From the NCBI GenBank assembly GCA_035626855.1, contig DASPMW010000128.1, positions 1,574 through 65,573 on the forward strand: DNA of 64,000 bases. Direction: 5' to 3'. Below are positions 12,270 to 64,000 of this stretch, piece after piece (the stretch's first letter is position 1; every line of letters begins with the position of its first letter). This DNA is from Patescibacteria group bacterium (GTDB lineage Bacteria; Pseudomonadota; Alphaproteobacteria; Micavibrionales; UBA2020). The position numbers were made by a program, and so were the translations under genes. Below the pieces are notes generated by a model, which did no database searches, had not been told where the DNA came from, and worked only from the letters and a program-made list of their open reading frames with translations.

Positions 12270-12626
12270 ATGGGAAAACTCACCACGCATATTCTCGACA
12301 CCGCGCATGGCTGCCCCGCGAACGGGGTGCGCTTGCGGCTGTTCCGCATCGGCGCGGGCGGGGCGGAGACGTTGCTGGTCGCGACCAAGACCAATGCCGA
12401 CGGCCGGGCCGATGCCCCCCTTTTGGCCGACAAGGATTTCAAGCCCGGCACGTACCGGCTGGAATTCGAGGCGGGAAAGTATTTTCGCCGCATGGGGGTC
12501 GAGCTGCCCAAGATCCCGTTCCTCGATCTCATTACTATCCATTTCGGCATCAGCGACGGCGAGGCGCATTACCACGTTCCGCTGCTCGTCTCGCCCTACA
12601 GCTACAGCACCTATCGCGGTAGCTGA
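12270..12626 (+). CDS. hiuH: 5-hydroxyisourate hydrolase (transthyretin-like)
   Basis: 118 aa. LTTHILDTAHGCPANGV near the N-terminus, HYHVPLLVSPYSYSTYRGS at the C-terminus. Confidence 0.9.
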   Translation: MGKLTTHILDTAHGCPANGVRLRLFRIGAGGAETLLVATKTNADGRADAPLLADKDFKPGTYRLEFEAGKYFRRMGVELPKIPFLDLITIHFGISDGEAHYHVPLLVSPYSYSTYRGS

Positions 12627-23662: not shown

Positions 23663-23789
23663 CGTAACGCATAAAGAACGCGCGTTCTTTCGTCAAAATT
23701 CCCAAATTTAACAATCCGTTAAGACCAGTCTGCGACGATCGGTGACGATTTACACCAAGGATCGCGCGCCTGCGCGCGTCTTATGGCCA

Positions 23790-51131: not shown

Positions 51132-52412
51132 ATGCCTGACAATATTCTCGACAACAAAAACATCGCCGACGCTTTCGGCGGCGCGGCCGGCAAGGCGTTC
51201 AACGAAGACATCGTTGATTACCGCAAAGCGGACCCTGAAACCAAGGCGAAGATGGACAAGCTGATTGCTTCCATCGACCTGAAAGACCTCAACTCGATCA
51301 CCGTCTTCGGCAAGGAGCCGACGGATGTGTTGCGTGAATCCTCCGAAGCGATCGTGAAGCGCGCGCAGAACGCGACGAGCTTCCTCGGCGGTTTCGCCCA
51401 GATCAAGGAAAAGCTCGAGAACTTCGACTTCCAGACTGTCGGCCGTCTCGCGGCCGATTATTCGGCGAAAGTCGACCGCAAGCTGAAAATGGCGGCGTTG
51501 TCTTTCAAGAAAAGCCCGTTCATGTACGTCCTGAAAAAAGTCGGCTACTTCTTCACCGGCATGGGCGGCGGCAAGGATTCGAACATGGACAACATCCGCC
51601 ATGAAATCGACAAGAGCCTGCTGCAGTTGGCCGATGTCGTCGCGGATCTCGAGGAATCGAAAGCAAAAATCCCGGGCGTGATCAAGGACCTCAACACGCT
51701 CGAGGAAGCCCGTCTGACCGCCTATTCCGATTACGGCATCTATGTCGGCGCGGCGCTAGAAAAATATCGCCAAGTGAAGGAAGACGTGCTGCCGAAACTG
51801 GAGCAGGAGGCGTCGACCAGCCCCCTGAAACAGGTCGAGCTGCGCAACATCCGCCTGGCCGGAACCGTCCTCAACGCGAAAGTGACCGATATGGACACCT
51901 TCCACAAGTCGAGCCTCGTCCAGCTGAAGACGATCGACGACCTGCAGGAAGCGCTCGCGATGAGCCAGCTGAAAATCGACAGCCACCTGACGATTTCGCA
52001 GGGCCAGTGGACTGCGATCCTCGCTGAAGCCGCAACCGCCGCGCAGGTCAGTGAAATTGCTGAAAGCGTCGATGCGGCGGACAAGTTCGGCGACAAGATT
52101 TTCGAACAGTCGCAGAAACTCTCCGACATGACCAAGGCGATGTCGCGCGCGGCTTTTGGCCACGGCACCCTCGACCCGGTCAAGGTCATCCAGCACCTCG
52201 AGAAGCGCACGCAGGACATCAAGGATGACCTCGTGTTCATGACCGAGTTCAACGCGAAGATGGAAGCCCAGCGCGCGGCCCTCGACGTCGCCGGCCAGAA
52301 ATTCCGCGAGGCGGCGGCGCAAGTGACCGCGCCCCGCCCGGTGCAGGAAGCGGCTGAAACCGCGGCGACCGCGGCGATGAAGGACCTGCTGGCCAACAAG
52401 CCGAAACCCTAA
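51132..52412 (+). CDS. telA: TelA / KlaB / YaaN family (toxic anion resistance) protein
   Basis: 426 aa, AAGGAAG SD. The N-terminal pattern KMDKLIASIDLKDLNSITVFGKEPTDVLRESSEAIV and the overall helical ~400-aa architecture match the TelA family as I remember it. Confidence 0.7.
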   Translation: MPDNILDNKNIADAFGGAAGKAFNEDIVDYRKADPETKAKMDKLIASIDLKDLNSITVFGKEPTDVLRESSEAIVKRAQNATSFLGGFAQIKEKLENFDFQTVGRLAADYSAKVDRKLKMAALSFKKSPFMYVLKKVGYFFTGMGGGKDSNMDNIRHEIDKSLLQLADVVADLEESKAKIPGVIKDLNTLEEARLTAYSDYGIYVGAALEKYRQVKEDVLPKLEQEASTSPLKQVELRNIRLAGTVLNAKVTDMDTFHKSSLVQLKTIDDLQEALAMSQLKIDSHLTISQGQWTAILAEAATAAQVSEIAESVDAADKFGDKIFEQSQKLSDMTKAMSRAAFGHGTLDPVKVIQHLEKRTQDIKDDLVFMTEFNAKMEAQRAALDVAGQKFREAAAQVTAPRPVQEAAETAATAAMKDLLANKPKP

Positions 52413-52436
52413 CGAATCGAACAGGAGCCGGCCGTC

Positions 52437-53903
52437 ATGGCACTCGATCAATCGCCCAAGCTTGTCAGCAATAAGTTTTCCGGCGCAGCCGCGCCGGATG
52501 CCAAGCGCGCGCGGATTGATGCCCGGACGGTCGGCTATCCTGCCGATGAAGATGACCAGAAAATCTCCTGGATGGGCATGTCGCCCGCGCCCGGCAAGGG
52601 CGACGGGTGGTATGTGCTGCTCGTCGAGGAAGAGCCGAATAAATACCTGGTTCAGGTGAACAAGGACGAGCGCATCGTCGAAGTCGTGAGGGTGCTCGGT
52701 AAGGGCGAAGACGGCCCGCTGACCTTCGAAAAGGCGGTCGAGCATCTGGCAGTATGGGAATATTCCCGCATGGCCAATGGCGCCGTGCCGCATGATAAGC
52801 AGGACCGCGACGATCTCGGCAAGCATTACTACAAGAACCTTCTGCTGAAGCGCGGCTACCTCGTCGATACGACCGGCACGCTTGCGGCAGTCGGTGATAT
52901 CTACCCGGGTCAGGCCGGCAAATTCCTCAAATCCGATCTCGAGGCGCTGGAGCGCTATCAGGACGGATTGAGAGGCGAGAATATCCTCGGCGAATTGATC
53001 GCGTCCCACGATGCCATTTTCATCTCGGAGACGACGCTGGAGGAAGACCTCCGCAGCTTCGGCGAGATCGCGATTTTTGATAAAATGCAGCTTTTCACGG
53101 ATACGCTGGTCAAATACGCAGGCGTGAAGCTGAAGCAGGTGCAGGATTTCTATGCAGACCCGACCGCCAAGGGCGGCGATGAGCTGGCAGTCGCGCTCGC
53201 GAAAAGCGGGCATTTCACGCAAGAGATGGTCGATCGCTTTAATGCCGCACGCGAAGAGCTGTTCGGCGCCGTTTTCCGTTTCTTCCATGTCGATGAAGCG
53301 GACTGGGGCAAGGAGCTGGACCTGAAAAGCAAGGAACTTCGCAAGGGGCTGCTGATTGACCCGGATGCCCAGCAAACCTACAATTATTTCGATCGCAAAA
53401 TCGGCTATCCGCTGACGCCGGACGATGTCAATGCGATGCTGTTCGTCTCCGCGCGCTCGCTTGTCTATTTCCGAGAAACGCTGACGGACAGCCCGCAGAA
53501 AGACATGCTCGAGCGGAAGGGAATATACAAGCAGGGCGATATCGACGACCTGCTTAACTACCTCGACCTGCTCGACATCAAGTTCCAGTACAAAGCGCTG
53601 GCAGAAGCCGCCGTTTCGCTGCCGGGCACCAAGCGCGACCGCGAGCTGCAGGAAAAGAAAGACGCGTTCATCCTGCGCGTACAGGGCTTCAAGGAAGGCC
53701 TGAAGGAGAGCCAGGATTATTCGCCGGCGATGGAAAAGCAGATCGACGCGTTCATTCGCGCCAGCACTCCGATTTATCTGATCGACCGCATCGAGGCACT
53801 GCCGGCGAAAATAGCCGGGGCGCAAAAATATATTCGCGACCGCCTGCTGCCGAAACCGGCTCCGGCGCCGACCGCGCCGACCCCGAAACAGCCGACGCTT
53901 TAG
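52437..53903 (+). CDS. hypothetical soluble protein
   Basis: 488 aa, AGGAG SD, 24 nt after telA. Normal coding composition, Pro/Ala-rich C-terminal tail PKPAPAPTAPTPKQPTL. No family recognised. Confidence 0.6.
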   Translation: MALDQSPKLVSNKFSGAAAPDAKRARIDARTVGYPADEDDQKISWMGMSPAPGKGDGWYVLLVEEEPNKYLVQVNKDERIVEVVRVLGKGEDGPLTFEKAVEHLAVWEYSRMANGAVPHDKQDRDDLGKHYYKNLLLKRGYLVDTTGTLAAVGDIYPGQAGKFLKSDLEALERYQDGLRGENILGELIASHDAIFISETTLEEDLRSFGEIAIFDKMQLFTDTLVKYAGVKLKQVQDFYADPTAKGGDELAVALAKSGHFTQEMVDRFNAAREELFGAVFRFFHVDEADWGKELDLKSKELRKGLLIDPDAQQTYNYFDRKIGYPLTPDDVNAMLFVSARSLVYFRETLTDSPQKDMLERKGIYKQGDIDDLLNYLDLLDIKFQYKALAEAAVSLPGTKRDRELQEKKDAFILRVQGFKEGLKESQDYSPAMEKQIDAFIRASTPIYLIDRIEALPAKIAGAQKYIRDRLLPKPAPAPTAPTPKQPTL

Positions 53904-53929
53904 GCAAGAAAATTTGAGGAGTGTGAGAG

Positions 53930-54961
53930 ATGGGCGATTTCGACTTCAACCCGAAGAAAAAAGACGACAAAGGCATCGGCAAGATCCGCCTCGGCGAGGA
54001 GAGCGCAGCCGAGCAAAAGGAAACGGCCGTCAAAACGGCGACCAGGAAAAAATGGCTGATCGGCGGCGGCATTGCGACCGGCGCGCTTGTGCTGACCCTC
54101 GGTCTCACCGCCGTTTTCAATTCGAGCAGCGAGAAGCAGCCGGCGCCCCAGCCCCCTGCCGTCACGCAGACCCAGACTGCTCAGCCGCCTGTGACCCGCC
54201 AGCAGCCCGTTCCGCAGGATGAGAACACCGGCGCCATCTTGTTCCAGAGCATTGCGGACAAGCAGAGCGTGATCTACCGCGACCAGGTTTTGATTTATAA
54301 GGAAACTGATCGCGCCGGCCGCATGACGGGCACCGGCGAAGCCTATCTGAGCGCCACCGGGCAGGCCGTTCCGTTCGGCAGCGATTTCGCGGTGCATGTG
54401 TCACTTTTCGAAAAAGGCGGTGTCAGCCTGCTGGTCGCCTCGGGCCCCTATGCCGGCAACCGCGTCGAGTTCTTCCCGACCGGCGTGCGCGGCACGAGCC
54501 GTGTGACCTATAGCCATGTGGGCGAGGAAAACCTAGGCTCCGACGGCATCACCATGCGCTTCACCGCCCTGCCGCAGGGGCAGCGCACCGAACAAACCGT
54601 CTCGATGAAAAGCCCGGCTATCCAGGGCAGCGGCGTGCAGATGCCTGGCAGCGCCTTTGAATACGACAAAAACGTTCGCGAGCGCGGCGAATATGTCCGC
54701 GCCTTCACGGTCAAAGGCAATGTTGAAGAAGGCGTGTTCCAGGTAAAGATCTGGAACGGCGACACCTACACCATCAACTTCGCCACGGGGCAATACACCG
54801 TCGACAGCGTCTTCCTTTTCCACCCGGATTATGTCGAGGAAACGCAGCGGACGGGGGTCAATATCGACGCCTCGACCATTCCGCTCGTCAAGGGCGTCGT
54901 CAACGTGGCGCCCGCCCATCGCGCGGCGCCTGCGCCTACCCGTCGCGGCCCGTCACGGTAA
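53930..54961 (+). CDS. hypothetical single-pass membrane protein with beta-rich extracytoplasmic domain
   Basis: 343 aa, GAGGAG SD. Lys-rich cytoplasmic N-terminus, TM WLIGGGIATGALVLTLGLTAVF, P/Q-rich linker, then ~230 aa with no recognised motif. Confidence 0.6.
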   Translation: MGDFDFNPKKKDDKGIGKIRLGEESAAEQKETAVKTATRKKWLIGGGIATGALVLTLGLTAVFNSSSEKQPAPQPPAVTQTQTAQPPVTRQQPVPQDENTGAILFQSIADKQSVIYRDQVLIYKETDRAGRMTGTGEAYLSATGQAVPFGSDFAVHVSLFEKGGVSLLVASGPYAGNRVEFFPTGVRGTSRVTYSHVGEENLGSDGITMRFTALPQGQRTEQTVSMKSPAIQGSGVQMPGSAFEYDKNVRERGEYVRAFTVKGNVEEGVFQVKIWNGDTYTINFATGQYTVDSVFLFHPDYVEETQRTGVNIDASTIPLVKGVVNVAPAHRAAPAPTRRGPSR

Positions 54962-55040: not shown

Positions 55041-55280
55041 TTATTCGTGGTTCTTGTCGTAGAGGTAGCCGCCGACAGCGCCGACGCCCGCACCGATCGC
55101 CGCGCCGCAGCCAACGCAGCCGCCGGTGACCGCCGTGCCGACAGCGCCGACGCCCGCGCCGATACCGGCGCCTGACAGGGTGCGCTGCTGGGTGGAATTC
55201 ATGCCGCTGCAAGCGGTCAGGGAAAGAAGCGCAAGGGCGATTACCGGTGCGCGCAGTTTAGAGGTGAGGGATGTCGTCAT
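55041..55280 (-). CDS. glycine-zipper lipoprotein (17-kDa-antigen / OsmB-like)
   Basis: From ATG 55280: MTTSLTSKLRAPVIALALLSLTAC lipobox, then GAGIGAGVGAVGTAVTGG...GAAIGAGVGAVGG. Confidence 0.7.
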   Translation of the reverse strand: MTTSLTSKLRAPVIALALLSLTACSGMNSTQQRTLSGAGIGAGVGAVGTAVTGGCVGCGAAIGAGVGAVGGYLYDKNHE

Positions 55281-55316
55281 GGGTCGTTCTCCTTGGGTGA
55301 ATTGCATCACCCGACA

Positions 55317-55341
55317 AACCCGCACCCTAAATCTTTGTTCC
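55317..55341 (-). promoter_or_regulatory. ECF (EcfG-like) promoter match GGAAC-N16-GGTT
   Basis: Minus strand reads GGAAC aaagatttagggtgcg GGTT, about 37 nt upstream of the lipoprotein ATG. Confidence 0.45.
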
Positions 55342-55380
55342 AAAAGAAAACCGTCCGGCCCAGGGCAGGGGGCCGGACGG
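55342..55380 (-). terminator. Rho-independent terminator of the EF-hand gene
   Basis: Minus strand reads ccgtccggcc-N10-ggccggacgg followed by ttttctttt. Confidence 0.75.
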
Positions 55381-55429
55381 TGTTTACCGGGATTCAGTCT
55401 CAGGGCAGGGAGCGAATCCCGGACGGTGG

Positions 55430-56086
55430 TTATTTGTTCAGGGCTGCTTCGGCGCGGTTTTTAGCGTCGATCGCCTCGTTATAAACGCCTTGCCATTCCT
55501 TTTTCTCGATGGCCTTGCTGTCGTCGACGTCGACCTGGTTGAACGCCTTGCCGGTGAATTCATGCGGCGACAGACCATTGTTGTTTTTGTCGAAGCGCGA
55601 GAGCTGCGTGTATTCCATGAAGCGCTCGTAGGTGACTTCCTGCTTGTCGGCCATGCCGTCATTGTCGAAGTCGTAAGTGATCTTCGTCATTTTCTCCATC
55701 GGCGCGACGGTCAGGACGGCCGGGCGCTCGAATTCATTGTTGTCGATGACCATGTTGCCGTCGGTGTCGTAAAGGCCGAAAATCATCTCGCCCACTTCGG
55801 CGCGGGAGAGCAGGCCGTTGCGGTCAGCGTCGAAATCCTGGATATGAAGCGCGCGGGTGGTGGGCGCGAGCGGCGCGGGAACGACAGCCGTTTCCGTCAG
55901 CTTCGAGGAGGAAGTGGTCGTGCTGGTGGTCGTTTCAATTGTCGTCGGGGTCGTGGTGGTGGTCACCGTAGACTTGGCGGCAGGTACTTCTACAATTCTT
56001 TCGTGGACGACGGTGGTTTCGGCAACTGCCTGGTTTGCCAACAGCGCGGCCGCGGCGCAAAGCATCATAAATCCGGTCTTTTTCAT
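55430..56086 (-). CDS. secreted EF-hand calcium-binding protein
   Basis: SD-supported ATG at 56086 (MKKTGFMMLCAAAALLANQAVA signal). Thr/Ser-rich linker. EF loops DADRNGLLSRAE, DTDGNMVIDNNE, DFDNDGMADKQE, DVDDSKAIEKKE. Confidence 0.75.
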   Translation of the reverse strand: MKKTGFMMLCAAAALLANQAVAETTVVHERIVEVPAAKSTVTTTTTPTTIETTTSTTTSSSKLTETAVVPAPLAPTTRALHIQDFDADRNGLLSRAEVGEMIFGLYDTDGNMVIDNNEFERPAVLTVAPMEKMTKITYDFDNDGMADKQEVTYERFMEYTQLSRFDKNNNGLSPHEFTGKAFNQVDVDDSKAIEKKEWQGVYNEAIDAKNRAEAALNK

Positions 56087-56119
56087 GGGGTTCTCCATTA
56101 AGGGTTATCTCAGGGCGCA

Positions 56120-56145
56120 AACGATGTGATCGTAAAAGTAGTTCC
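56120..56145 (-). promoter_or_regulatory. ECF (EcfG-type) promoter, exact consensus GGAAC-N17-CGTT
   Basis: Minus strand reads GGAAC tacttttacgatcacat CGTT, 33 nt upstream of the ATG at 56086. Confidence 0.6.
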
Positions 56146-56190
56146 TTCAATATGGCAACTCCGAAGGCTTTGATGAGACCTCCTAAATCG

Positions 56191-56216
56191 GGAACCATAA
56201 CAGCGGTGTGGAGGTA
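56191..56216 (+). promoter_or_regulatory. weaker ECF-type promoter match GGAAC-N17-GGTA
   Basis: GGAAC cataacagcggtgtgga GGTA, 36 nt upstream of the PRC-barrel gene ATG. Divergent to the promoter at 56120-56145. Confidence 0.3.
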
Positions 56217-56252
56217 AGCGCGCCGACGCTTAACACTCAAAGGAGCTACCCC

Positions 56253-57116
56253 ATGAAAAAACTCACCCTGCTCGGCGCCGTTTCCGCCCTTGCGCTGCTC
56301 GTTGCCGCACCGGCAATGGCTGAAACCGCCAAAGAAATGAACAAGGAATACAACCAGGAAGAGTCCTACGGCTCGCGTGGCAAGGATAGCGGCTCGATTG
56401 TTGACCGCAACCAGAACAACACCGAGGTCAAGGAAGACATCTCCGACGCCACGGCTAAAGCTTCCGCGTCGATGCGCAACACCGCCGACGAGATCAAGGC
56501 ATCCCTGATTGACGAGGACGTGAAGGTGAAGGCCTCCCCCGTCACGATCAAATCGGCGACGACGGCTGACGGCATCATCGGCAAGCCGGTGGTCAACCAG
56601 GCGAATGACCGCATCGCAACCGTCGAGGACGTTATCCTTGACGCGAACGGCGATGCAAAACTGATTGTCGTGAAAGACGGCGATTTCGCGGGCATGGGCG
56701 GCAAGCTTGCGGCCTTCGACTATGACGCCATCATCAGCCGCCAGGCGGATGGCGACGTCGTCATGCCGATCACCGAGCAGACTCTCGACAAGGTCGCTGA
56801 ATTCTCCTACGACAAGTCGGACAAGGATAACGTTCGCGTCATCCCTGCCAACGGCTACAGCGTGAAGGGCCTGCTTGACGGCAATATCGTCGATGCGCAA
56901 GGCGAAAAACTGGCGACCATCGATAACGTATCGCTCAAAGCCGGCAAAGCCGACATGATCATCGCGAGCTATGGCAAGGTACTCGCCATGGGCGGCGACA
57001 AGGTCGCGCTCGATTTCGATACCGGCCGTCTTGTCCGCGACGGCAAGAATGTCGACCTGAAACTGAGCCAGAACCAGACGGCGAAGTTCAACACCTACAA
57101 AGACAACCACAAATAA
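56253..57116 (+). CDS. secreted protein with two PRC-barrel domains
   Basis: From ATG 56253 (AAAGGAG SD): signal MKKLTLLGAVSALALLVAAPAMA. IIGKPVVNQANDRIATVEDVILDANGDAKLIVV and LLDGNIVDAQGEKLATIDNVSL are PRC-barrel-like. Confidence 0.7.
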   Translation: MKKLTLLGAVSALALLVAAPAMAETAKEMNKEYNQEESYGSRGKDSGSIVDRNQNNTEVKEDISDATAKASASMRNTADEIKASLIDEDVKVKASPVTIKSATTADGIIGKPVVNQANDRIATVEDVILDANGDAKLIVVKDGDFAGMGGKLAAFDYDAIISRQADGDVVMPITEQTLDKVAEFSYDKSDKDNVRVIPANGYSVKGLLDGNIVDAQGEKLATIDNVSLKAGKADMIIASYGKVLAMGGDKVALDFDTGRLVRDGKNVDLKLSQNQTAKFNTYKDNHK

Positions 57117-57126
57117 ACAATCGGTA

Positions 57127-57158
57127 TCCGGCCTGCGCCCTTACGGGTTCAGGCCGGA
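57127..57158 (+). terminator. stem-loop after the PRC-barrel gene
   Basis: tccggcctg-N14-caggccgga; the following T-tract is weak (atccctttc). Confidence 0.4.
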
Positions 57159-57180
57159 ATCCCTTTCAAAGGATGGCGCA

Positions 57181-57384
57181 ATGAACGAAGACATTCTGCA
57201 AGGCAAGTGGAACGAGCTGAAAGGCTCTATCCAGGAGAAATGGGGCAAAATCACGGACGACGATATGACGCGCATCAACGGCGACCGCACCAAGCTCGCG
57301 GGCACGATCCAGAAGAATTATGGCATCGCGCGGGACGAAGCTGAAAAACAGCTCAAAGAGTGGGAGCAGCAGCATCGCGGATAA
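57181..57384 (+). CDS. csbD: CsbD-family general stress protein
   Basis: 67 aa. GKWNELKGSIQEKWGKITDDDMTRINGDRTKLAGTIQKNYG is the CsbD signature. Confidence 0.85.
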   Translation: MNEDILQGKWNELKGSIQEKWGKITDDDMTRINGDRTKLAGTIQKNYGIARDEAEKQLKEWEQQHRG

Positions 57385-57425
57385 CGCCGCGAATCCAGTT
57401 GGATCGCGCCAAAGGGTGTATCCAG

Positions 57426-57451
57426 TGAACCTTTATGCCTACCGCGCTGTT
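57426..57451 (+). promoter_or_regulatory. weak ECF-type promoter match TGAAC-N17-TGTT
   Basis: TGAAC ctttatgcctaccgcgc TGTT, 34 nt upstream of the DUF883 gene ATG. Confidence 0.25.
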
Positions 57452-57485
57452 AGTGCGTTGTGCCATGCAACATAGGAGACCAGTC

Positions 57486-57878
57486 ATGCAAAACACCACC
57501 ACGAACACCATGGGCGGCAAGCCCAGCACCGGAGCGATCAGCCAGACGCTCTCCTCTGACGTCAGCGATATCCGCAGCGACGTCCAGGCGCTCAAGGACG
57601 ACGCCTGCGCGCTCACCGGCGACATCAAGGCAGCCGGTCTCGGCAGAGTTGCCGAAGCAAAAGGCGCCGCTATCGGCAAGGTCAACGAAGTCAAAGGTCT
57701 CGCTGTTGACAAGGTCAACGAAGTAAAGAACCTTGCGACGGAAAAGCTGGATTCGATCCTCGCTTCCAGCGACGAAAGCCTGAAGGCGATCGATGACGAG
57801 ATCAAGGCGAACCCGCGCAGCGCGGTTGCTTTTGCTTTCGCCGCCGGTATCGTTGCAAGCTTCCTGTTCCGCCGGTAA
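57486..57878 (+). CDS. DUF883 (ElaB/YqjD/YgaM) family membrane-anchored stress protein
   Basis: From ATG 57486 (AGGAGA SD). Helical repeats and a C-terminal anchor NPRSAVAFAFAAGIVASFLFRR typical of the family. Confidence 0.8.
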   Translation: MQNTTTNTMGGKPSTGAISQTLSSDVSDIRSDVQALKDDACALTGDIKAAGLGRVAEAKGAAIGKVNEVKGLAVDKVNEVKNLATEKLDSILASSDESLKAIDDEIKANPRSAVAFAFAAGIVASFLFRR

Positions 57879-57883
57879 CTGCC

Positions 57884-58318
57884 ATGGCCATTATTCAGCC
57901 GATGGTCGCGCAGCTGCTCATCAACAGCGTTCTCAGCCGCAAGTCCAAAGCGCGCGGACGTAGCAAGGCGGAGTTTCTCCTGCTTGTTTCTTCCGGCTTT
58001 ATGTCGCTTGTCGGCATCGTCTTCCTTTTCGTCGCCCTCTACGACTGGGCGATGCTTCACTACGCCGCGTGGATGGCTGCTGTCATCACCGGCGGCGTGG
58101 GCCTCGCGGTCGGCATGACTTTTGCCGCCATCGCCGGCGGCATGGAAGCAGAGCGCAAACGCCATGAACCCGAGCAAGCCGAAGACCCGGGAGAGGCATT
58201 GCTGGCCGCAATTGACCGCGCCACGCACGGCCTCGAAAAGCCCATCGCGGATAACCCGCGCACCTCGGTGCTGCTGGCTTCCCTCGCGGGCTATATGACT
58301 GGCAACAAGCTTCACTAA
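57884..58318 (+). CDS. YqjE-like (holin-X / DUF1469-like) two-TM membrane protein
   Basis: 144 aa, 5 nt after the DUF883 gene, mirroring the E. coli yqjD-yqjE order. Two hydrophobic helices. Confidence 0.55.
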   Translation: MAIIQPMVAQLLINSVLSRKSKARGRSKAEFLLLVSSGFMSLVGIVFLFVALYDWAMLHYAAWMAAVITGGVGLAVGMTFAAIAGGMEAERKRHEPEQAEDPGEALLAAIDRATHGLEKPIADNPRTSVLLASLAGYMTGNKLH

Positions 58319-58336
58319 GAAGAAGCACACACACGG

Positions 58337-58367
58337 AAAAGCCGCCCTTTGACGAGGGCGGCTTTTT
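58337..58367. terminator. bidirectional Rho-independent terminator
   Basis: gaaaa gccgccct-ttgacg-agggcggc tttttcc, between the plus-strand gene ending at 58318 and the minus-strand gene ending at 58388. Confidence 0.75.
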
Positions 58368-58387
58368 CCTGTTTCACCGTTGCGTGA

Positions 58388-59128
58388 CTAATCGATGCTC
58401 TTGGCGTCGCCGCAGAACATATAGCCCACGCCGCGCACGGTCTTGATCAGGGCCGGCGCAGCGGGGTCGTCGTTGAGCTTTTTGCGGATGCGCGCGACCT
58501 GCGTATCAATCACGCGATCATAGGCGTCGAATTTTCCGCCGGCGCGGGTAAGCTCGAACAGCTGCTCGCGCGACAGCACGCGGTTGGGGGCCATCACCAG
58601 CGCCTCCAGCAGCCGGAATTCCCCCGTCGTAAGGTCGGAGGCGGCGTGCTTTTCATCAAAAAGCTGGTACTGCTGGCGGTCAAGCAGCCAGCCGTTGAAA
58701 GCAATGCGCTTGGACTTCGCAAGCGGCTGGTCCTTATCGTTGGTGGGCGTCTTCTCGTCCGCGGCGGCACGGCGCAGTACGGCCTTGATGCGGGCTGACA
58801 GCTCGCGCATTTCAAACGGCTTGGTCAAATAGTCGTCAGCGCCCATTTCCAGGCCCACGATCTTGTCGGCCGTCTCGTCCTTGCCGCTGACCACAATCAC
58901 GGGGGCGCGGGTTTTCGCGCGAATCGACATCAGGAGCGTGAGGCCGTCATTATCCGGCAGCATCAGGTCGAGCAGGATGATATCGGGCTGGGTCGTTTCG
59001 AGTTTAGCCATGGTTTCCGCGCCGTTTGACGCAGTCAGCAGCTGATAGCCCTGATTCTCGAGATACGTGCGCATCACGAGCTGCAGGTTTTCGTCGTCAT
59101 CTACTGCCAGTACCGTAGCCTTGTGCAC
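58388..59128 (-). CDS. OmpR/PhoB-family response regulator
   Basis: 246 aa (GTG start). Receiver VLAVDDD...IILLDLMLPD...TKPF. Winged helix LTTGEFRLLEAL...VRGVGYMF. Confidence 0.85.
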   Translation of the reverse strand: MHKATVLAVDDDENLQLVMRTYLENQGYQLLTASNGAETMAKLETTQPDIILLDLMLPDNDGLTLLMSIRAKTRAPVIVVSGKDETADKIVGLEMGADDYLTKPFEMRELSARIKAVLRRAAADEKTPTNDKDQPLAKSKRIAFNGWLLDRQQYQLFDEKHAASDLTTGEFRLLEALVMAPNRVLSREQLFELTRAGGKFDAYDRVIDTQVARIRKKLNDDPAAPALIKTVRGVGYMFCGDAKSID

Positions 59129-59314
59129 CCGATCGCCGTTCTATGGAAATTCAAAGCGCGGAATTTACTATAACCGGTCGTTTATAGGGTTTTTGTCACG
59201 CAAATGAAACAATTTTTTTCGCGACGCTTACTTGAGCTTCAAAACGCGGTTACAGGCGAAAGCTATCCTTAGATCAGTAGCAAAAACAACCGTACTGAAC
59301 TTAGGAGCTGACAA

Positions 59315-59875
59315 ATGTTTGAGCAAAAAGCCCTCGTCGCTGAAATGGAAAACCTCCGCCGCTTTGCCCTGCGCCTGACGCGCAACGCAAGCGACGCGGA
59401 AGACCTCGTCCAGTCGACCCTGCTGCGCGCTCTCGAGAAGCAGGATTACTTTGAGACCGGCACCAACCTCTTCAGCTGGACCTCGAAAATCATGTTCAAC
59501 CTGTTTGCGTCGCAGTACCGCCGCAAGAAGAAATTCGAAACCCAGTACGATCCCGAGCCGTATCTGGCGCATGCGCAAGTCGGTCCGAGCCAGGAAGTCA
59601 CCGCCGACCTTTCCAAAGTGAAAGAGGCGATGAAGCAGCTCTCTCAGGAACATCGCGATATGCTGGTCCTGGTCTGCATCCGCGGGTTGCGCTACGAAGA
59701 AGTCTCTGAAATGCTGCAGATCCCGGTCGGCACCGTGCGCTCGCGCCTGTTCCGCGCCCGCAAGCAGCTGCAGGAAGTGCTTGATACGACGCCGGCACTA
59801 CCGCGCGTTGCCGCAGAGCGCGTTTTCGGCGCGCTGCCCGATGCCAGCGAGGAGAGCAAGCTGGCCCAGGCTTAA
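59315..59875 (+). CDS. ECF-type RNA polymerase sigma factor (possibly EcfG-like)
   Basis: 186 aa. Region 2 LRRFALRLTRNASDAEDLVQSTLLRALEK...NLFSW. Region 4 RDMLVLVCIRGLRYEEVSEMLQIPVGTVRSRLFRARKQL. Confidence 0.85.
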   Translation: MFEQKALVAEMENLRRFALRLTRNASDAEDLVQSTLLRALEKQDYFETGTNLFSWTSKIMFNLFASQYRRKKKFETQYDPEPYLAHAQVGPSQEVTADLSKVKEAMKQLSQEHRDMLVLVCIRGLRYEEVSEMLQIPVGTVRSRLFRARKQLQEVLDTTPALPRVAAERVFGALPDASEESKLAQA

Positions 59876-59894
59876 GCTGCAAGCTGCTCAAAAC

Positions 59895-59925
59895 AAAAAA
59901 GCCCCCGGCGACGGGGGCTTTTTTT
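59895..59925. terminator. bidirectional Rho-independent terminator
   Basis: aaaaaa gcccccg-gcga-cgggggc ttttttt, between the sigma factor gene and the convergent kinase gene. Confidence 0.8.
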
Positions 59926-59930
59926 CTGCC

Positions 59931-62201
59931 TTAAGCAGATTTGCCGGCGAGAAGTTCGTAAATTTTGGCCCGGAGATCCGCCTCGACCACAGGCTTGGGC
60001 AGATAGGTATCCATGCCGGCCTTCAGGCACTGTTCCTTGTCGCCGATAAAGGCATGGGCGGTCATGCCCATGATCGGCGTGCGCGGGCGGTTCGTTTGGG
60101 TTTCTATCCGCCGGATTTCCTGGGTGGCGGTGAAGCCGTCCATCTCAGGCATTTGCACATCCATGAGGATGAGGTCGAACGGCGTTTCTGCCCATTTATC
60201 GACCGCTTCCTTCCCAGTCCGCGCGACATCGTAGGGGCATTTCAGGGTGTCGAGGAGATAGGAGAGGATGACGATATTGCCTTCGTAGTCGTCGACGATC
60301 AGGACGCGTTTCTGGCGAATATCGGCAGGGCGTCCCGGTTCAATATCGCCGTCGTCCTCGTCCTGAAGTGGCTGCGGCTCCGCGAGGCGGAGCGGCAGGG
60401 TGACGGTAAACAGCGCCCCTTCCTTGGGCTTGCTGTCCACCGTAATATCGCCGCCCATAAGGCGCGCGAGACGCAGCGAAATCGGCAGCCCCAGACCCGT
60501 GCCGCCATATTTGCGCGAGACGGAACTGTCCGCCTGCTTGAAGCGCTCGAAGATAAGCGAGAAGTTCTCGGGCGAAATGCCGATCCCGCTGTCCTGCACG
60601 TCTAGGCGGAGCTGTTCGTCGTTTCCATCGCCGATGCGGCGGGCTGTGACGGCAACGCGGCCTTCCTGCGTGAATTTGATGGCATTGCCGATAAGGTTGA
60701 TAAGAATCTGGCGGAGGCGCACGGGATCGCCCAGCATCTGCAGCCCGCGGACCGCATTATAGTCAAACGTAAAGCGGATTCCTTTTTCCGACGCCTTCAC
60801 CGAAAAGATACTGACGACCTGCTCAAACAGCGCCTGCAGGTCGAACGCCTTTTCGGCGAGCTCCAGTTCGCCGCTTTCGATCTTGGAGAAATCGAGGATA
60901 TCGTTGATCAGGTCCTTGAGCGAGGCCGTGCTCGAGCTGAGGGTGCGCACCAGCTGCCGCTGGCGGGAATCAAGCCCGGCTTGCGTATTCTCGAAGATCT
61001 CGGCGATGCCGGAAATGGCGGTGAGCGGAGTCCGTATTTCGTGGCTCATATGGGCGAGGAATTCCGTCTTGGCGCGGTTCGCCTTTTCCGCGCGCTCCTT
61101 CGCGCGTTCCAGTTTTTCTTCATACGCCTTGATATGGGTGATGTCGGTATGCGCGCCGACGATGCGATAGGCATGGCCCGCGCTGTCATATACGGCGCGG
61201 CCGCGGGCATTGACCCATATCCAGCGGCCCGTCCGGTGCCGCAGGCGGAACACACCTAGGTATTCGCCTGTTTCTCCGGCACGGTACTGCTCGATCAGGC
61301 CTAATACCCGCTCCTTGTCTTCCGGGTGTATCAGGTCCCCAAAAGAAGCGAGCGCCCCCTGCACCGGCAGGTCGTCATACCCCAGCATGGCGAGGTACTG
61401 CTTCGAATAAAAAGCCCTGTCGCGCTGGAAATTCCATTCAAAAAAGCCGTCGCTCGACCCTTCGATCGCGAGGCGGAAGGCCTGTTCGGAATCCGCAAGC
61501 TCGCGTTCCGCGCGGTCACGCGCCATCCGCGCGCGCAGGTACCAGGCGTTAATGACCATGAACAGCACCGCCATCGCGATGCAGCAGATAAGGATGCGCT
61601 CAATGGCGCGCCGGCGCAGCTCCGCCAGCCCGGTACGCTGGTCGCCAAGCAATTTCTGGGATTCGAGCAGAATATCCCTGTTTACCCGCGCGAGATCGCC
61701 GCGCAGGTTTTCGGCCGCGATAATTCCTGATTTTTTGCCCGGCGCGGCGAATTGCGCGTCAAGGCTGGTCGTGTATTTGAGGAAATAGTCATGCAGTTCC
61801 TCCAGCCGGCTCGGCGACAGGCCGGGCAGGGCCGCCATGAGCCGGTCGATATCGGCGAGTGTGTCCGATACTTCCGCCTTTGCCTGCGTATAATCAGCGG
61901 CGAATTTACGGTTGGCGGTCAGGGCGTAGCCGCGGGCGGCCGCGATCATCTGTTCGACCCGCAGTCCGAAGTCCTGGTTTTTCCGCATGGCCGTTTCAGC
62001 ATGCTCGACCCCCAGGATTGCCGTGTCTATCTGACGCGCGCCCGTCAACAAAAAGCCGGCGATCATGCCGAAACTCGCCAGAATGACGAGCAGCAGGAAT
62101 AGGTAATTACGGTAGGTGGTGAGCAGCGTGCGGATGGGGGCCTGCCTTGCTGGTGGACGCAGTCCCAATATATAAAAAAATGGTGCTCCGCAGAGCACCA
62201 T
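59931..62201 (-). CDS. hybrid sensor histidine kinase/response regulator (TM, CHASE3-like, TM, PAS, HisKA, HATPase, REC)
   Basis: H-box FLAHMSHEIRTPL, G2 GGTGLGLPIS, receiver VLIVDDY...LILMDVQMPEMDG. The first 11 codons of the ORF-track model lie inside a terminator hairpin, so the true start is probably downstream (for example TTG at 62168). Confidence 0.85.
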   Translation of the reverse strand: MVLCGAPFFYILGLRPPARQAPIRTLLTTYRNYLFLLLVILASFGMIAGFLLTGARQIDTAILGVEHAETAMRKNQDFGLRVEQMIAAARGYALTANRKFAADYTQAKAEVSDTLADIDRLMAALPGLSPSRLEELHDYFLKYTTSLDAQFAAPGKKSGIIAAENLRGDLARVNRDILLESQKLLGDQRTGLAELRRRAIERILICCIAMAVLFMVINAWYLRARMARDRAERELADSEQAFRLAIEGSSDGFFEWNFQRDRAFYSKQYLAMLGYDDLPVQGALASFGDLIHPEDKERVLGLIEQYRAGETGEYLGVFRLRHRTGRWIWVNARGRAVYDSAGHAYRIVGAHTDITHIKAYEEKLERAKERAEKANRAKTEFLAHMSHEIRTPLTAISGIAEIFENTQAGLDSRQRQLVRTLSSSTASLKDLINDILDFSKIESGELELAEKAFDLQALFEQVVSIFSVKASEKGIRFTFDYNAVRGLQMLGDPVRLRQILINLIGNAIKFTQEGRVAVTARRIGDGNDEQLRLDVQDSGIGISPENFSLIFERFKQADSSVSRKYGGTGLGLPISLRLARLMGGDITVDSKPKEGALFTVTLPLRLAEPQPLQDEDDGDIEPGRPADIRQKRVLIVDDYEGNIVILSYLLDTLKCPYDVARTGKEAVDKWAETPFDLILMDVQMPEMDGFTATQEIRRIETQTNRPRTPIMGMTAHAFIGDKEQCLKAGMDTYLPKPVVEADLRAKIYELLAGKSA

Positions 62202-62207
62202 TTTTTT
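62174..62207. terminator. bidirectional Rho-independent terminator after the DUF1328 gene
   Basis: aaaaaaa tggtgctc-cgca-gagcacca ttttttt. Confidence 0.8.
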
Positions 62208-62232
62208 AGCTTTTCACGTTATGTCTATGGAA

Positions 62233-62409
62233 CTAGGCGGGTGGCGCCTTGCCCTGTAGTGCATGTACCGCATAGGCGACGATAAACAGCACCAAGAAAG
62301 CGACAAACAGGATCCGGCCAATTTCCACGGACATTACCGCAAGACCGCCGAAACCCAGGAATGCCGCGATAACGGCAAGGATCAGAAATGAAAAGGCCCA
62401 CTGTAACAT
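62233..62409 (-). CDS. DUF1328 / UPF0391 (YtjA-like) small membrane protein
   Basis: From ATG 62409 (AAGGAGA SD): [25 protein letters not shown]...[12 protein letters not shown] is the family signature. Confidence 0.75.
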
Positions 62410-62483
62410 GGCGTGTCTCCTTTTTCCGGTTAATTTCAGCGACTTAGCGCAATCATCCGCCACGCCGCCGTGTACGAACCGCT

Positions 62484-62509
62484 AACCCTTTGACGTATAA
62501 CTTGGTTCC
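62484..62509 (-). promoter_or_regulatory. ECF-type promoter match GGAAC-N17-GGTT (DUF1328 gene)
   Basis: Minus strand reads GGAAC caagttatacgtcaaag GGTT. Confidence 0.4.
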
Positions 62510-62522
62510 GGCGCGTATTGAC

Positions 62523-62548
62523 GGAACTATCGATGCTTCCGTTCTGTT
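62523..62548 (+). promoter_or_regulatory. ECF-type promoter match GGAAC-N17-TGTT (three-gene operon 62590-63637)
   Basis: GGAAC tatcgatgcttccgttc TGTT. Its -35 is 13 nt from, and inverted relative to, the -35 of the divergent promoter at 62505-62509. Confidence 0.4.
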
Positions 62549-62589: not shown

Positions 62590-62835
62590 ATGGGCGAAAA
62601 AGACGTCAACGATTACGACATCCAGGCACTTGTGGACGCCCAGCTTGACTGGGAAGAGGAGAAGAAAGTCTGGCAGGCGATCCAGGCCAATTCCATTCTC
62701 CAGCGCCGGTACGAAGAACTCGTGAACCAGAAAAAACTCCTTCTCGCCTGGTGGGCCTCCGAAAACACGATTGAACCTGTGGAAAAGCCGCTTGATCACC
62801 GCCTTTACGCGGTGCAGTCCAGCGAAAAGCATTAG
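62590..62835 (+). CDS. hypothetical 81-aa protein, weakly anti-sigma-factor-like N-terminus
   Basis: MGEKDVNDYDIQALVDAQLDWEEEKKVWQAIQANSILQRRYEELV resembles the ..L.DGEL..eE....e..L..dp.l...y..l pattern of anti-sigma N-terminal helices. There is no TM segment and no Cys/His zinc motif. The start is uncertain. Confidence 0.4.
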   Translation: MGEKDVNDYDIQALVDAQLDWEEEKKVWQAIQANSILQRRYEELVNQKKLLLAWWASENTIEPVEKPLDHRLYAVQSSEKH

Positions 62836-62847
62836 AAGGGCCGCAAG

Positions 62848-63093
62848 ATGAACGGTATTACCCGCATCCTTTTAGCGCTTCTCGTCATCGCGGCGATCGT
62901 CTGGTTCGTTGAACCGAGCACGGGACGAGAAGCGGCCGAGGGAATGCGCACGAGCGTCCGTGAATCCGTAAAGAATACCAAAGAGCGCTTGAACAGCAGC
63001 GTCGATGCAGCCAAGCAGGATATGCAGACAATCCGGTCGCGTGTGACCAAGGGAGCGAATGATGCAAGAGACAATCAATCCGACCGTCCGTGA
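62848..63093 (+). CDS. hypothetical small membrane-anchored protein
   Basis: 81 aa, GAAGGG SD. N-terminal TM ILLALLVIAAIVWFV followed by a charged helical tail. Confidence 0.45.
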   Translation: MNGITRILLALLVIAAIVWFVEPSTGREAAEGMRTSVRESVKNTKERLNSSVDAAKQDMQTIRSRVTKGANDARDNQSDRP

Positions 63094-63637
63094 GGCCGTT
63101 GGCGTCTTTAACGACGCCCGAAAGCTGCAGCACGCCCTCGATGCCCTCGAAGAGCGCGGATTCATGCGGCAGGAGATCGGCGTCTATGCGAACGAGCTGA
63201 GCCCGCTTGCGCAGGACAGCGAGCTCGGTCGGCATGCGGATGACGTCAAGGATGATCCTTCGGCGGAGCGTCAGGTGCCGATTCCCGTCGAAATCCTGGG
63301 AGAAATGGAAGGCTCGCTGATCGGCGCGCCCATGTATATCTCGGCCGTGGGCGGCGCTGTTGCCGCAGCAGCTGCCGGCGCCTCAATACTTTTCATTATT
63401 GCCGCGGCGGTGACGGCAGGTGTTGCCGGCGCGCTTGTCGGGTACGGCCTCGCCAAAGTGCTCGGGCGTCGTTACCAGGAATCCCTGAACGCGCAGATGC
63501 GTCGTGGCGGGGTTGTGGTATGGGTTTCGGTGCGGGAGGATAAAATGCAGGACGTCGCGGTTGACGTGCTGCGGCAGTTCTCGGCACAGGACATCCATGT
63601 TCATGACGTGCCGCTGCACGGCCGGACGATTAACTGA
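63059..63637 (+). CDS. membrane protein with YflT/GSP17M-like N-terminal domain (putative general stress protein)
   Basis: 192 aa, AAGGGAG SD. REAVGVFNDARKLQHALDALEERGFMRQEIGV resembles the YflT-type domain. Central Gly/Ala-rich TM pair. Confidence 0.45.
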   Translation: MMQETINPTVREAVGVFNDARKLQHALDALEERGFMRQEIGVYANELSPLAQDSELGRHADDVKDDPSAERQVPIPVEILGEMEGSLIGAPMYISAVGGAVAAAAAGASILFIIAAAVTAGVAGALVGYGLAKVLGRRYQESLNAQMRRGGVVVWVSVREDKMQDVAVDVLRQFSAQDIHVHDVPLHGRTIN

Positions 63638-64000
63638 TTTTCCCGACAGCCACCGGAAATTTGCCGAATAGCAAACTCAGCTCGCTGAACTGCGCAGACG
63701 TTAGCGTTTCTTCTGCCAATTGGTCCTCCACGGCCTGATCCCCCCCGATGACCAGATTCGTTCCGGCCCAACCATCCCGGCGCGCGAGCCTTTCATCCCA
63801 ATCATAACGCCCAGCAAACCGCGGAACCGCAACGATGAGACTGACGCCGCCGCCGTCCAGCCGAAGCGCGACAACACTGTCGGCATCGGGGCCTTCGACT
63901 TCCACTTTGGAAATCCTCAGATCCGCGCAGCCAAACGGCGACTCCCGCCGCAGCGCCAACAGCTTGCGAGTCAATGCAAGCTTGACGGCGCCGGTATGCC
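63630..64000 (-). CDS. C-terminal part of a larger protein running off the right edge (possibly malto-oligosyltrehalose synthase-like)
   Basis: The reading frame is open to the window end (...HTGAVKLALTRKLLALRRESPF...). The tail pattern KL.L...LLALRR..P.F...Y.......GPDADSVVAL.R......LIVAVPR resembles TreY C-termini as I recall them; this is a weak assignment. Confidence 0.35.
   Translation of the reverse strand, partial: HTGAVKLALTRKLLALRRESPFGCADLRISKVEVEGPDADSVVALRLDGGGVSLIVAVPRFAGRYDWDERLARRDGWAGTNLVIGGDQAVEDQLAEETLTSAQFSELSLLFGKFPVAVGKIS

Follow-up and report, generated by a model that had tools for sequence, protein, structure and literature searches.

Which sigma factor reads the promoter-like elements that precede a group of small stress-type genes in an uncultured alphaproteobacterium, and are these elements promoters at all? 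The question was raised by the 64,000-nucleotide stretch of DNA analysed in this work (the window: contig DASPMW010000128.1 of assembly GCA_035626855.1, forward-strand positions 1,574 to 65,573), in which a first-pass annotation had claimed six matches to the promoter of EcfG, the sigma factor, of the extracytoplasmic function (ECF) type, of the alphaproteobacterial general stress response (GSR). A scan of the window found all six in place and in the orientation claimed. Their position relative to genes, together with their conservation in relatives, was decisive, and as judged from sequence we regard them with high confidence as genuine, functionally constrained ECF promoter elements. As to their reader, we lean with modest confidence to a compact general-stress-type regulon driven from these six promoters by the ECF sigma factor encoded within the cluster, set by an OmpR-type response regulator and damped by a protein of 81 amino acids (aa). 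The six sites were:

55341-55317, minus strand: P(Gly-zipper), GGAAC-N16-GGTT-tG; the -10 ends 36 nt before ATG 55280; directly past the terminator of the EF-hand gene.
56145-56120, minus strand: P(EF-hand), GGAAC-N17-CGTT-tG; the -10 ends 33 nt before ATG 56086.
56191-56216, plus strand: P(PRC-barrel), probably also for CsbD, GGAAC-N17-GGTA-aG; 36 nt before ATG 56253; divergent from P(EF-hand).
57426-57451, plus strand: promoter of the DUF883-like/YqjE-like pair, TGAAC-N17-TGTT-aG; 34 nt before ATG 57486.
62509-62484, minus strand: P(DUF1328), GGAAC-N17-GGTT-aG; 74 nt before ATG 62409.
62523-62548, plus strand: promoter of the anti-sigma-like/YtxH-like/YflT-like operon, GGAAC-N17-TGTT-tG; 41 nt before ATG 62590; back-to-back with P(DUF1328).

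The -35 was GGAAC in five of the six and TGAAC in one, the spacer was N17 in five and N16 in one, and the -10 was CGTT once, GGTT twice, TGTT twice and GGTA once; P(EF-hand) was the sole exact match to the consensus. All six lay on the same strand as their gene, with 33-74 nt from the end of the -10 to the start codon (start codons were re-derived from Shine-Dalgarno sequences for EF-hand, 56086, Gly-zipper, 55280, and DUF1328, 62409; for EF-hand, ATG 56086 with its Shine-Dalgarno GGAGA was preferred over ATG 56098). The spacing of 30-70 nt given previously held for five sites (33-41 nt) but not for the DUF1328 site (74 nt). The two divergent pairs described at that stage are real, with the -35 pentamers 45 bp apart in the EF-hand/PRC pair and 13 bp apart in the DUF1328/anti-sigma-like pair.

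The simplest alternative was that these are chance matches or have another role, such as transcription-factor sites, and that the genes are transcribed from sigma-70 promoters. Counting did not dismiss it: the exact consensus GGAAC-N16/17-CGTT was matched twice in the 64 kb with 1.1 matches expected, which is not above chance, so that this count is no evidence by itself; GGAAC-N16/17-BGTT was matched six times (2.4 expected). Position pointed the other way. Promoter space, defined as positions in the right orientation that lie 15-120 nt upstream of start codons, amounted to 2.3% of positions and strands (from a crude gene call), and contained four of the six matches to GGAAC-N16/17-NGTT (binomial P = 4e-6) and six of the 18 matches to the relaxed pattern [GT]GAAC-N16/17-NGT[TA] (P = 2e-6), the latter a pattern chosen post hoc, after the data had been seen, which again favours chance. 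All promoter-space matches lay between 55.3 and 62.6 kb, with none at a promoter position in the other 55 kb, and the remaining matches in the window lay inside genes, apart from an intergenic palindrome at 703-729. When the intergenic DNA of the cluster (1,148 nt) was dinucleotide-shuffled 2000 times, the relaxed motif occurred 0.23 times on average and never six times, and the strict motif 0.09 times and never four, so the observed counts were reached in none of the 2000. An unbiased 5-mer scan of the same DNA was dominated by A/T runs and left GGAAC outside the twelve most enriched 5-mers, a point for chance, though the sample was too small for 5-mer enrichment to be informative; GGAAC alone occurred five times (1.9 expected, P = 0.04). 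A simple consensus scan for sigma-70-like promoters gave one weak match (56158-56129, 9/12), which overlaps P(EF-hand); the remaining five units had no such match upstream.

Two further matches to the motif, at 12321-12345 and 61247-61272, were dropped as promoters; both are within coding regions, the second one antisense. The palindrome at 703-729 looks perfect (TGAACGGAATTTATTATAACGAGTTCA), fits the relaxed motif on both strands, and is better read as the operator of a transcription factor than as an ECF promoter.

Conservation was followed in two sets of related loci: 18 (L001-L018) retrieved from GTDB genomes with the sigma protein of 59315 as query, and others (in the range L022-L028) from exact-protein look-ups; the DNA inspected comprised the window, a flank of about 5.3 kb (L026) and 20-kb pieces of the relatives. 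By its sequence matches, the organism is an uncultured alphaproteobacterium near metagenome-assembled genomes (MAGs) labelled Alphaproteobacteria or Micavibrio. A protein identical to that of 62590-62835 and the related contig L011 were deposited under record titles of “Patescibacteria group bacterium” MAGs, a label that is probably a binning or labelling error, since all sequence relatives are Alphaproteobacteria or Micavibrio-like.

The motif was present at the orthologous position of the same six units in at least eight related genomes, one of them with rearranged gene order, and the surrounding intergenic sequence, and even the gene order, had diverged in the relatives carrying it. In the syntenic loci L006-L009, L015, L025, L027 and L028 it preceded nearly every unit with an ortholog, usually as GGAAC/TGAAC-N16/17-CGTT, and in L025, the closest complete genome, it stood at all six positions. 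The orthologous sites were:

Gly-zipper: GGAAC-N17-CGTT (L007, L008, L009), GGAAC-N17-TGTT (L025), GGAAC-N16-CGTT (L023).
EF-hand: GGAAC-N16-CGTT (L007, L009, L025, L023, L028), GGAAC-N17-CATT (L008).
PRC: GGAAC-N17-CGTA (L007, L008), GGAAC-N17-CGTT (L025), GGAAC-N16-CGTT (L028, L023).
DUF883, with a CGTT -10: TGAAC-N17 (L007, L009), AGAAC-N17 (L008), TGAAC-N16 (L006); with other -10s: TGAAC-N16-TGTT (L025, L028), GGAAC-N16-TGTT (L023), GGAAC-N16-AGTT (L015).
DUF1328: TGAAC-N16/17-CGTT (L006, L007, L008), GGAAC-N17-AGTT (L025), GGAAC-N16-AGTT (L028), GGAAC-N16-TGTT (L023).
62590 operon: GGAAC-N16/17-CGTT (L006, L008, L025, L028), GGAAC-N16-GGTT (L007), GGAAC-N17-TGTT (L023), GGAAC-N17-AGTT (L027).

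Even the two weakest sites of the window, PRC (GGTA) and DUF883 (TGAAC...TGTT), were vindicated in this way, because relatives carry CGTT or CGTA at the former and, in four of them, TGAAC (AGAAC in L008)...CGTT at the latter. In L023, with a sigma factor 70% identical and a rearranged gene order, a 12-kb cluster contained eight motifs; every one of them preceded a transcription unit, and the genes for sigma, regulator and kinase had none. Across 32 aligned orthologous sites GAAC was invariant, the first base of the -35 was G in 28 and T in four, the spacer was N16 or N17 in all, the first base of the -10 was C in 19, T in eight, G in four and A in one, and the GT of the -10 was invariant. A G two nt after the GTT, never part of the search pattern, was found in 30 of the 32 sites and in seven of the eight sites of the source genome (in the window at 55315, 56118, 56218, 57453, 62482 and 62550), and was missing from a chance match to the motif inside a gene of L028. 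The refined motif was thus GGAAC-N16/17-cGTTnG; the conserved G may be lineage- or sigma-specific. A bipartite motif with fixed spacing and orientation, kept at orthologous positions through rearrangement and extended by a base that nobody had selected, is hard to reconcile with chance or with sigma-70 promoters, the more so as the sigma-70-like match precedes just one of the six units, and we consider that explanation very improbable.

The set of sites extends past the window end. L026, which comes from the same genome (4,249 nt compared, 0 mismatches), reaches 5.3 kb further, and at 8104-8183 (window-equivalent 67855-67934) it contains a third back-to-back pair, both members exact GGAAC-N17-CGTT. 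One member faces an alpha-amylase-family operon of two genes, which ends (3') in the window as the partial open reading frame (ORF) 63630-64000 on the minus strand; the other faces a DUF892 gene. In L007 (2726-4784) and L008 (2453-4650) the cluster is flanked by extra motif-preceded genes that the window lacks, for a single-domain response regulator, a secreted protein of 195-207 aa and a protein of 166-192 aa, and these suggest a larger, variable regulon.

The sites have the features of EcfG-type GSR promoters: a GGAAC -35, a spacer of N16-17, a CGTT -10 or its tolerated variants, and a same-strand position less than 100 nt from the gene. Promoters of this type before CsbD, PRC, DUF883, Gly-zipper and EF-hand genes are textbook knowledge in Alphaproteobacteria. 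The EcfG consensus reported in Rhizobium etli is GGAAC-N16-CGTT (PMC3892343). In Sphingopyxis granuli the -35 is near-invariant and the -10 flexible, with TGTT, CATT and GGTT as the commonest variants, transcribed in vitro by EcfG1/EcfG2, and the example given with a GGTT -10 is an EF-hand gene (PMC7083833); the experimental motif of Sphingomonas melonis, GGAAC-N17-20-GTT, occurs mostly within 100 bp of coding sequences, a PRC-barrel gene among them (PMC6599016). The gene set had been described as typical of general stress regulons, and PRC-barrel and EF-hand genes are indeed documented EcfG targets in these two papers. As quoted in these sources, the consensus strings stop at GTT and do not cover the G two nt downstream.

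The genes behind the six promoters, with their strands and domain matches, were:

55041..55280, minus strand: Gly-zipper (YMGG) lipoprotein gene (Pfam PF13441, 31.6 bits); terminator at 55017-54981.
55430..56086, minus strand: gene for a secreted EF-hand protein (Pfam EF-hand_6 and EF-hand_1), with orthologs 59% identical in L007-L009; terminator at 55381-55350.
56253..57116, plus strand: PRC-barrel protein gene (Pfam PF05239).
57181..57384, plus strand: CsbD-like gene (Pfam PF05532).
57486-57878, plus strand: DUF883/ElaB-like gene (weak Pfam matches only, LEA_4).
57884-58318, plus strand: YqjE-like membrane protein gene (weak Pfam match, Phage_holin_3_6).
62233..62409, minus strand: gene for a DUF1328 small membrane protein (Pfam PF07043).
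62590..62835, plus strand: gene for the 81-aa soluble anti-sigma-like protein (class-I anti-sigma-domain-like predicted fold), a regulon member.
62848-63093, plus strand: YtxH/DUF883-like gene (weak Pfam match), downstream in the 62590 operon.
63059-63637, plus strand: gene for a YflT-like general stress protein (weak Pfam match), downstream in the 62590 operon.

Of the identities assigned before, Gly-zipper_YMGG, EF-hand, PRC, CsbD and DUF1328 were borne out by Pfam, but DUF883 was reached by a weak match only and the YqjE-like protein matched Phage_holin_3_6 instead. Intrinsic terminators separate the units, so that each promoter heads its own; the one after DUF1328 is a strong bidirectional hairpin at 62173-62207 (GGTGCTC-N4-GAGCACC flanked by A7/T7). 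CsbD has no ECF motif of its own in 57117-57180 and is probably read through from the PRC promoter; PRC and CsbD form one unit with a single motif in L023. The DUF883-like and YqjE-like genes form one transcription unit, a pair kept in L006-L009, L015, L023 and L025, and the gene order of the 62590 operon is kept in L025 and L026. No Rfam family was matched in the window. Immediately upstream of the cluster (51132-54961) are a TelA-like gene and genes for two large proteins (488 and 343 aa) without Pfam match, syntenic in L025 and without ECF motif; elsewhere in the window a 1,970-aa ORF occupies 23742-29654 on the plus strand.

Who, then, reads these promoters? The middle of the cluster is occupied by a regulatory module, and no second sigma-like gene was found in the window:

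58388..59128, minus strand: gene for an OmpR-family response regulator (REC plus winged helix; Pfam and NCBIfam), divergent from the sigma gene and without ECF motif.
59195..59262, plus strand: phased repeats upstream of the sigma gene, GTCACG-N5-GAAACAATTTTTTTC ... CTTACT ... GTTACA.
59315..59875, plus strand: ECF sigma factor gene, EcfG-related, the candidate reader of the six promoters.
59931..62201, minus strand: hybrid histidine kinase gene (CHASE3-PAS-HisKA-HATPase-REC; Pfam), a 756-aa ORF.

The window sigma scored 126, 112, 122 and 112 bits on the EcfG-type NCBIfam models NF009199, NF009169, NF009198 and NF009192, all under the cut-offs (219 bits for NF009199), and 137 bits on NF009164 (cut-off 185 bits), a model on which a Rhizobium sigma that has a membrane anti-sigma (ECF26-like) reaches 306 bits. 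On the same four EcfG-type models the control PDB 5uxx_A scored 323, 296, 219 and 216 bits, and R. etli EcfG2 (from p42f) 153, 135, 146 and 142 bits. By BLASTP the window sigma was 38% identical to 5uxx_A, 37% to EcfG2, and 42% and 38% to two ECF26-like controls; these controls were sigma/anti-sigma pairs, protein neighbours from a plasmid collection search that gave no related DNA. 5UXX is taken here to be the EcfG-NepR complex of Bartonella quintana; the EcfG nature of 5uxx_A is read here only from its 48% identity to R. etli EcfG2 and its 323 bits on NF009199. Neither a best PDB match to 5uxx_A nor a match to Pfam PhyR_sigma2 (PF22029) was accepted as a mark of the EcfG class, for the Rhizobium ECF26-like sigma scores the same or higher on both; R. 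etli EcfG2, a true EcfG-type sigma, was 57 bits clear of the next match. With scores below the curated cut-offs that straddle two families, the window sigma is EcfG-related and yet cannot be filed in ECF15, the EcfG group.

A further explanation is that another ECF group sharing the GGAAC/GTT core (SigE/SigH/SigR-like or ECF26-like), unrelated to the EcfG stress response, reads the sites. A -35 with AAC and a -10 with GT are common to many ECF groups, and the -10s of the window are invariant only in GT (one site is GGTA). The local sigma itself scores marginally higher on the ECF26-like model than on the EcfG models, and the RpoE6 (ECF26) consensus is reported to be similar to that of ECF15, but the ECF26 -35 is given in the same source as GGAATA, not GGAAC (PMC6180224). 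With all 32 sites GGAAC or TGAAC, a preference for CGTT in the -10 and a gene content that is that of alphaproteobacterial GSR regulons, we think such a reader improbable. Two-component-system contexts are described for the groups ECF15, 32, 39, 234 and 246 (PMC7826278), and the window sigma was assigned to none of these; ECF246 was considered as a group for sigmas accompanied by both a DNA-binding response regulator and an anti-sigma, and was not adopted.

More serious is the possibility that a canonical EcfG under NepR/PhyR control, encoded elsewhere in the genome, reads the sites, the 59315 sigma being secondary, overlapping or unrelated. The motif is the published EcfG consensus (PMC3892343, PMC7083833), the target families are classic ones, with PRC-barrel and EF-hand as documented examples, the local sigma lacks its own ECF promoter, and about half of the alphaproteobacterial genomes are reported to carry additional, non-canonical EcfG-like copies with no regulators next to them (PMC3892343). 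However, no phyR, nepR or second sigma gene was found in the 64-kb window. A tblastn search of the related loci L001-L018, which come from at least 10 genomes, likewise gave no phyR, nepR or other sigma, and no second sigma-like domain appeared in the Pfam neighbour lists of L022-L025, L027 and L028; a literature search for PhyR in Micavibrio found nothing. The only anti-sigma-like gene of the regulon has a predicted class-I fold, not that of NepR, and travels with this sigma family. The regulon is also physically tied to the regulator/sigma/kinase module over a wide divergence (sigma 64-80% identical), which it always flanks in the related loci. A canonical EcfG as the reader thus seems to us unlikely, without being far-fetched. 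The earlier “EcfG-type” label accordingly holds for the promoter sequence, on the strength of orthologous conservation, the unselected G and the documented -10 variants, but not yet for the regulator, as the only sigma of the window is not assignable to ECF15 and has no phyR/nepR in the window or the related loci; its neighbours are an OmpR-type regulator and a hybrid kinase, and the non-canonical EcfG copies likewise lack nepR/phyR beside them.

The surroundings of the local sigma gene, the preferred reader, hint at control of another kind. The divergent regulator-sigma pair is kept down to 42% sigma identity (L016), and the CHASE3-PAS hybrid kinase is usually paired with the sigma gene too. 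The first ATG of the kinase overlaps the DUF1328 terminator, so its true start is probably further in; simple co-transcription of the kinase with DUF1328 is probably not the case. None of 19 related sigma upstream regions contained an ECF motif, and a GGAAT-N14-CGTT at 59160-59182 was rejected as the ECF promoter of the window sigma (wrong spacing, not conserved). The columns that were invariant in the alignment of these 19 regions belong instead to GT(C/T)ACA-like direct repeats, helically phased at 0, 11, ~33 and ~55 bp, with the invariant core ACAAA.T.TTTC. Repeats were found before the sigma genes in L001-L009, L011-L015 and L023, at every sigma copy including the paralogs in L001-L005, L013 and L014 (two sigma copies occur in MAG D1-2020, L002 and L005, and two in L006), and the first two boxes occurred as a pair exactly once before every copy, relocated ones included. 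In L025 (OZ257145.1 203726-223986) the stress cluster is fully syntenic and regulator and kinase are kept, with the sigma gene absent between them; a 79%-identical sigma lies about 1.2 Mb away in the same record (L004, OZ257145.1 1439042-1459593) beside unrelated genes and with the same upstream repeats. In the aligned sequences, then, the boxes stay with the sigma gene when it is relocated, and the array is probably the site of the divergent OmpR/PhoB-family regulator, which would act in trans. An adjacent DNA-binding regulator, and repeats before a sigma gene without ECF promoter, are the sequence marks of an ECF sigma transcribed under a two-component system.

The pair formed by the first two boxes was also seen before a conserved gene for a protein of 83-85 aa in L015 and L022-L024, which has no counterpart in the window. 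In L016 (6627-6800; a distantly related Stellaceae MAG, sigma 42% identical) the sigma gene is directly followed by a GGAAC-N16-CGTTTG; the next 130 nt or so contain no convincing ORF and lead to a terminator-like hairpin, so that this site may drive a sigma-dependent small RNA.

The 81-aa protein encoded at 62590 had no Pfam or NCBIfam match and no sequence-profile match in the PDB. Its AlphaFold 2 (AF2) model had a mean pLDDT (predicted local distance difference test) of 80.5, with 92-94 over residues 11-50, and showed a predicted three-to-four-helix bundle (sequence pattern IQALVD.QL...EE...V). Sixteen of the 21 best Foldseek matches in the PDB were ECF anti-sigma chains (ChrR, RsiW, RskA, RslA, MucA), all with E-values of 1 or more, and the ChrR anti-sigma domain superposed with a root-mean-square deviation of 0.9 A over 48 residues (Foldseek probability 0.99, E-value likewise at least 1); E-values this weak are usual for a small helical protein, here with some 50 helical residues. 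Homologs formed nine clusters, and all contexts examined, those of four clusters and of the matches by tblastn in L006-L008 and L015, lay in the regulator/sigma/kinase/DUF1328 module. In L006 the homologous gene directly follows the second sigma copy, one homolog had been named “anti-sigma factor RsiW” by the Joint Genome Institute (JGI), and in L015 the anti-sigma-like gene had no motif match upstream. Identity with NepR was rejected, as there was no NepR Pfam match and the predicted fold resembles class-I anti-sigma domains instead. By its modelled fold and its gene context, the protein looks like a candidate cognate class-I anti-sigma of the window sigma family.

Taken together, the six sites would be promoters of an ECF sigma with the specificity GGAAC-N16/17-(C/T/G)GTT-N-G, serving a regulon of the Gly-zipper lipoprotein, EF-hand, PRC-barrel plus CsbD, the DUF883/YqjE pair, DUF1328 and the anti-sigma-like/YtxH/YflT operon, and running past the window to the divergent pair before the alpha-amylase-family operon and the DUF892 gene. 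The reader would most likely be the ECF sigma of 59315-59875, in mid-cluster, as a non-canonical relative of EcfG. A signal would reach a two-component system, in which the OmpR-type regulator is probably fed by the CHASE3-PAS hybrid kinase, and this would turn on transcription of the sigma gene through the phased GT(C/T)ACA repeats; the sigma would then read the promoters of the stress genes around it, and also the one that drives its class-I anti-sigma. As the anti-sigma-like gene stands under one of the six promoters, negative feedback on the sigma would follow. The presence, placement, enrichment and deep conservation of the sites are observed, as are the gene families; three links in the chain are inferred: the sigma reading the six sites, the regulator acting at the repeats, and the pairing of sigma and anti-sigma.

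Several observations weigh against this scheme. The window sigma is equally distant from EcfG and from ECF26-like sigmas, so that its specificity is unreadable from sequence, and there is no GGAAC...GTT promoter before it (59129-59314), unlike most autoregulated ECF sigmas. The Foldseek E-values for the 81-aa protein are all 1 or more. The Hpt step normally needed between a hybrid kinase and an OmpR-type regulator was not identified. Finally, a fraction of the genome was inspected, and a nepR-ecfG/phyR locus elsewhere would recognise the same motif.

With these points counted, a non-canonical control module is plausible, in which a sister sigma of EcfG would work with an OmpR-type two-component system and with a class-I anti-sigma that is minimal and soluble. 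The wider proposal, that in this Micavibrio-related lineage the EcfG-consensus regulon is run by an EcfG sister group under an OmpR-type two-component system and a sigma-induced, soluble, zinc-free class-I anti-sigma, and not by PhyR-NepR-EcfG, is put forward tentatively. In Alphaproteobacteria PhyR-NepR-EcfG counts as the conserved core of the stress response; should the lineage lack PhyR/NepR and use a two-component system and a class-I anti-sigma, this would be a rewired architecture and a documented replacement of that core, and would also offer a simple, portable set of sigma, anti-sigma and promoters. The promoter set itself is an ordinary kind of ECF stress regulon, unusually compact and clean, with atypical neighbouring regulators; for annotation it provides at least eight promoters, the refined motif, and the assignment of a dozen “hypothetical” small proteins to one stress regulon.

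Compared with known systems, the promoters resemble those of EcfG (ECF15) sigmas (SigT, RpoE2, EcfG1/2) in the bipartite GGAAC-N16/17-CGTT, the near-invariant -35, the flexible first base of the -10, the position within 100 nt of the starts and the occurrence of divergent pairs, and the targets are also those of EcfG regulons: CsbD, PRC-barrel, EF-hand, Gly-zipper/OsmB-like, DUF883, DUF1328, YflT, DUF892 and trehalose/glycogen-type enzymes. They differ in the extra conserved G two nt after the GTT, in the absence of a nepR-ecfG/phyR locus from the window, and in a nearby sigma that falls under the cut-offs of EcfG-type models and is not autoregulated from such a promoter. Like the non-canonical EcfG paralogues (R. 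etli EcfG2/PF00052, S. meliloti RpoE5, C. crescentus SigU, S. granuli EcfG2), the window sigma is EcfG-related, stands without adjacent NepR/PhyR and belongs to a family with several copies per genome, and S. granuli ecfG2 likewise has no upstream EcfG consensus, yet its product reads GSR promoters. In contrast to these paralogues, the window sigma, at 37% identity to R. etli EcfG2, scores no better on the EcfG models than ECF26-like sigmas, and is found consistently with an OmpR-type regulator, a CHASE3-PAS hybrid kinase and a class-I anti-sigma-like protein.

The arrangement of the control genes recalls ECF39 (SigE-CseBC of Streptomyces coelicolor), in that an OmpR-family regulator and a histidine kinase are encoded beside a sigma gene that lacks its own ECF promoter and follows conserved, helically phased direct repeats; phylum and ECF group are different, and here there is a candidate anti-sigma as well, and a hybrid kinase whose input domains are CHASE3 and PAS. 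The 81-aa protein, for its part, resembles the class-I anti-sigma domains (N-terminal domains of ChrR, RsiW, RslA, RskA and MucA) in its predicted helix bundle and in the linkage of its gene to an ECF sigma and an ECF promoter, but it is only 81 residues long and lacks a transmembrane segment, zinc ligands (no Cys, no HxxxCxxC) and any Pfam match, and in the window its gene is not co-transcribed with the sigma gene.

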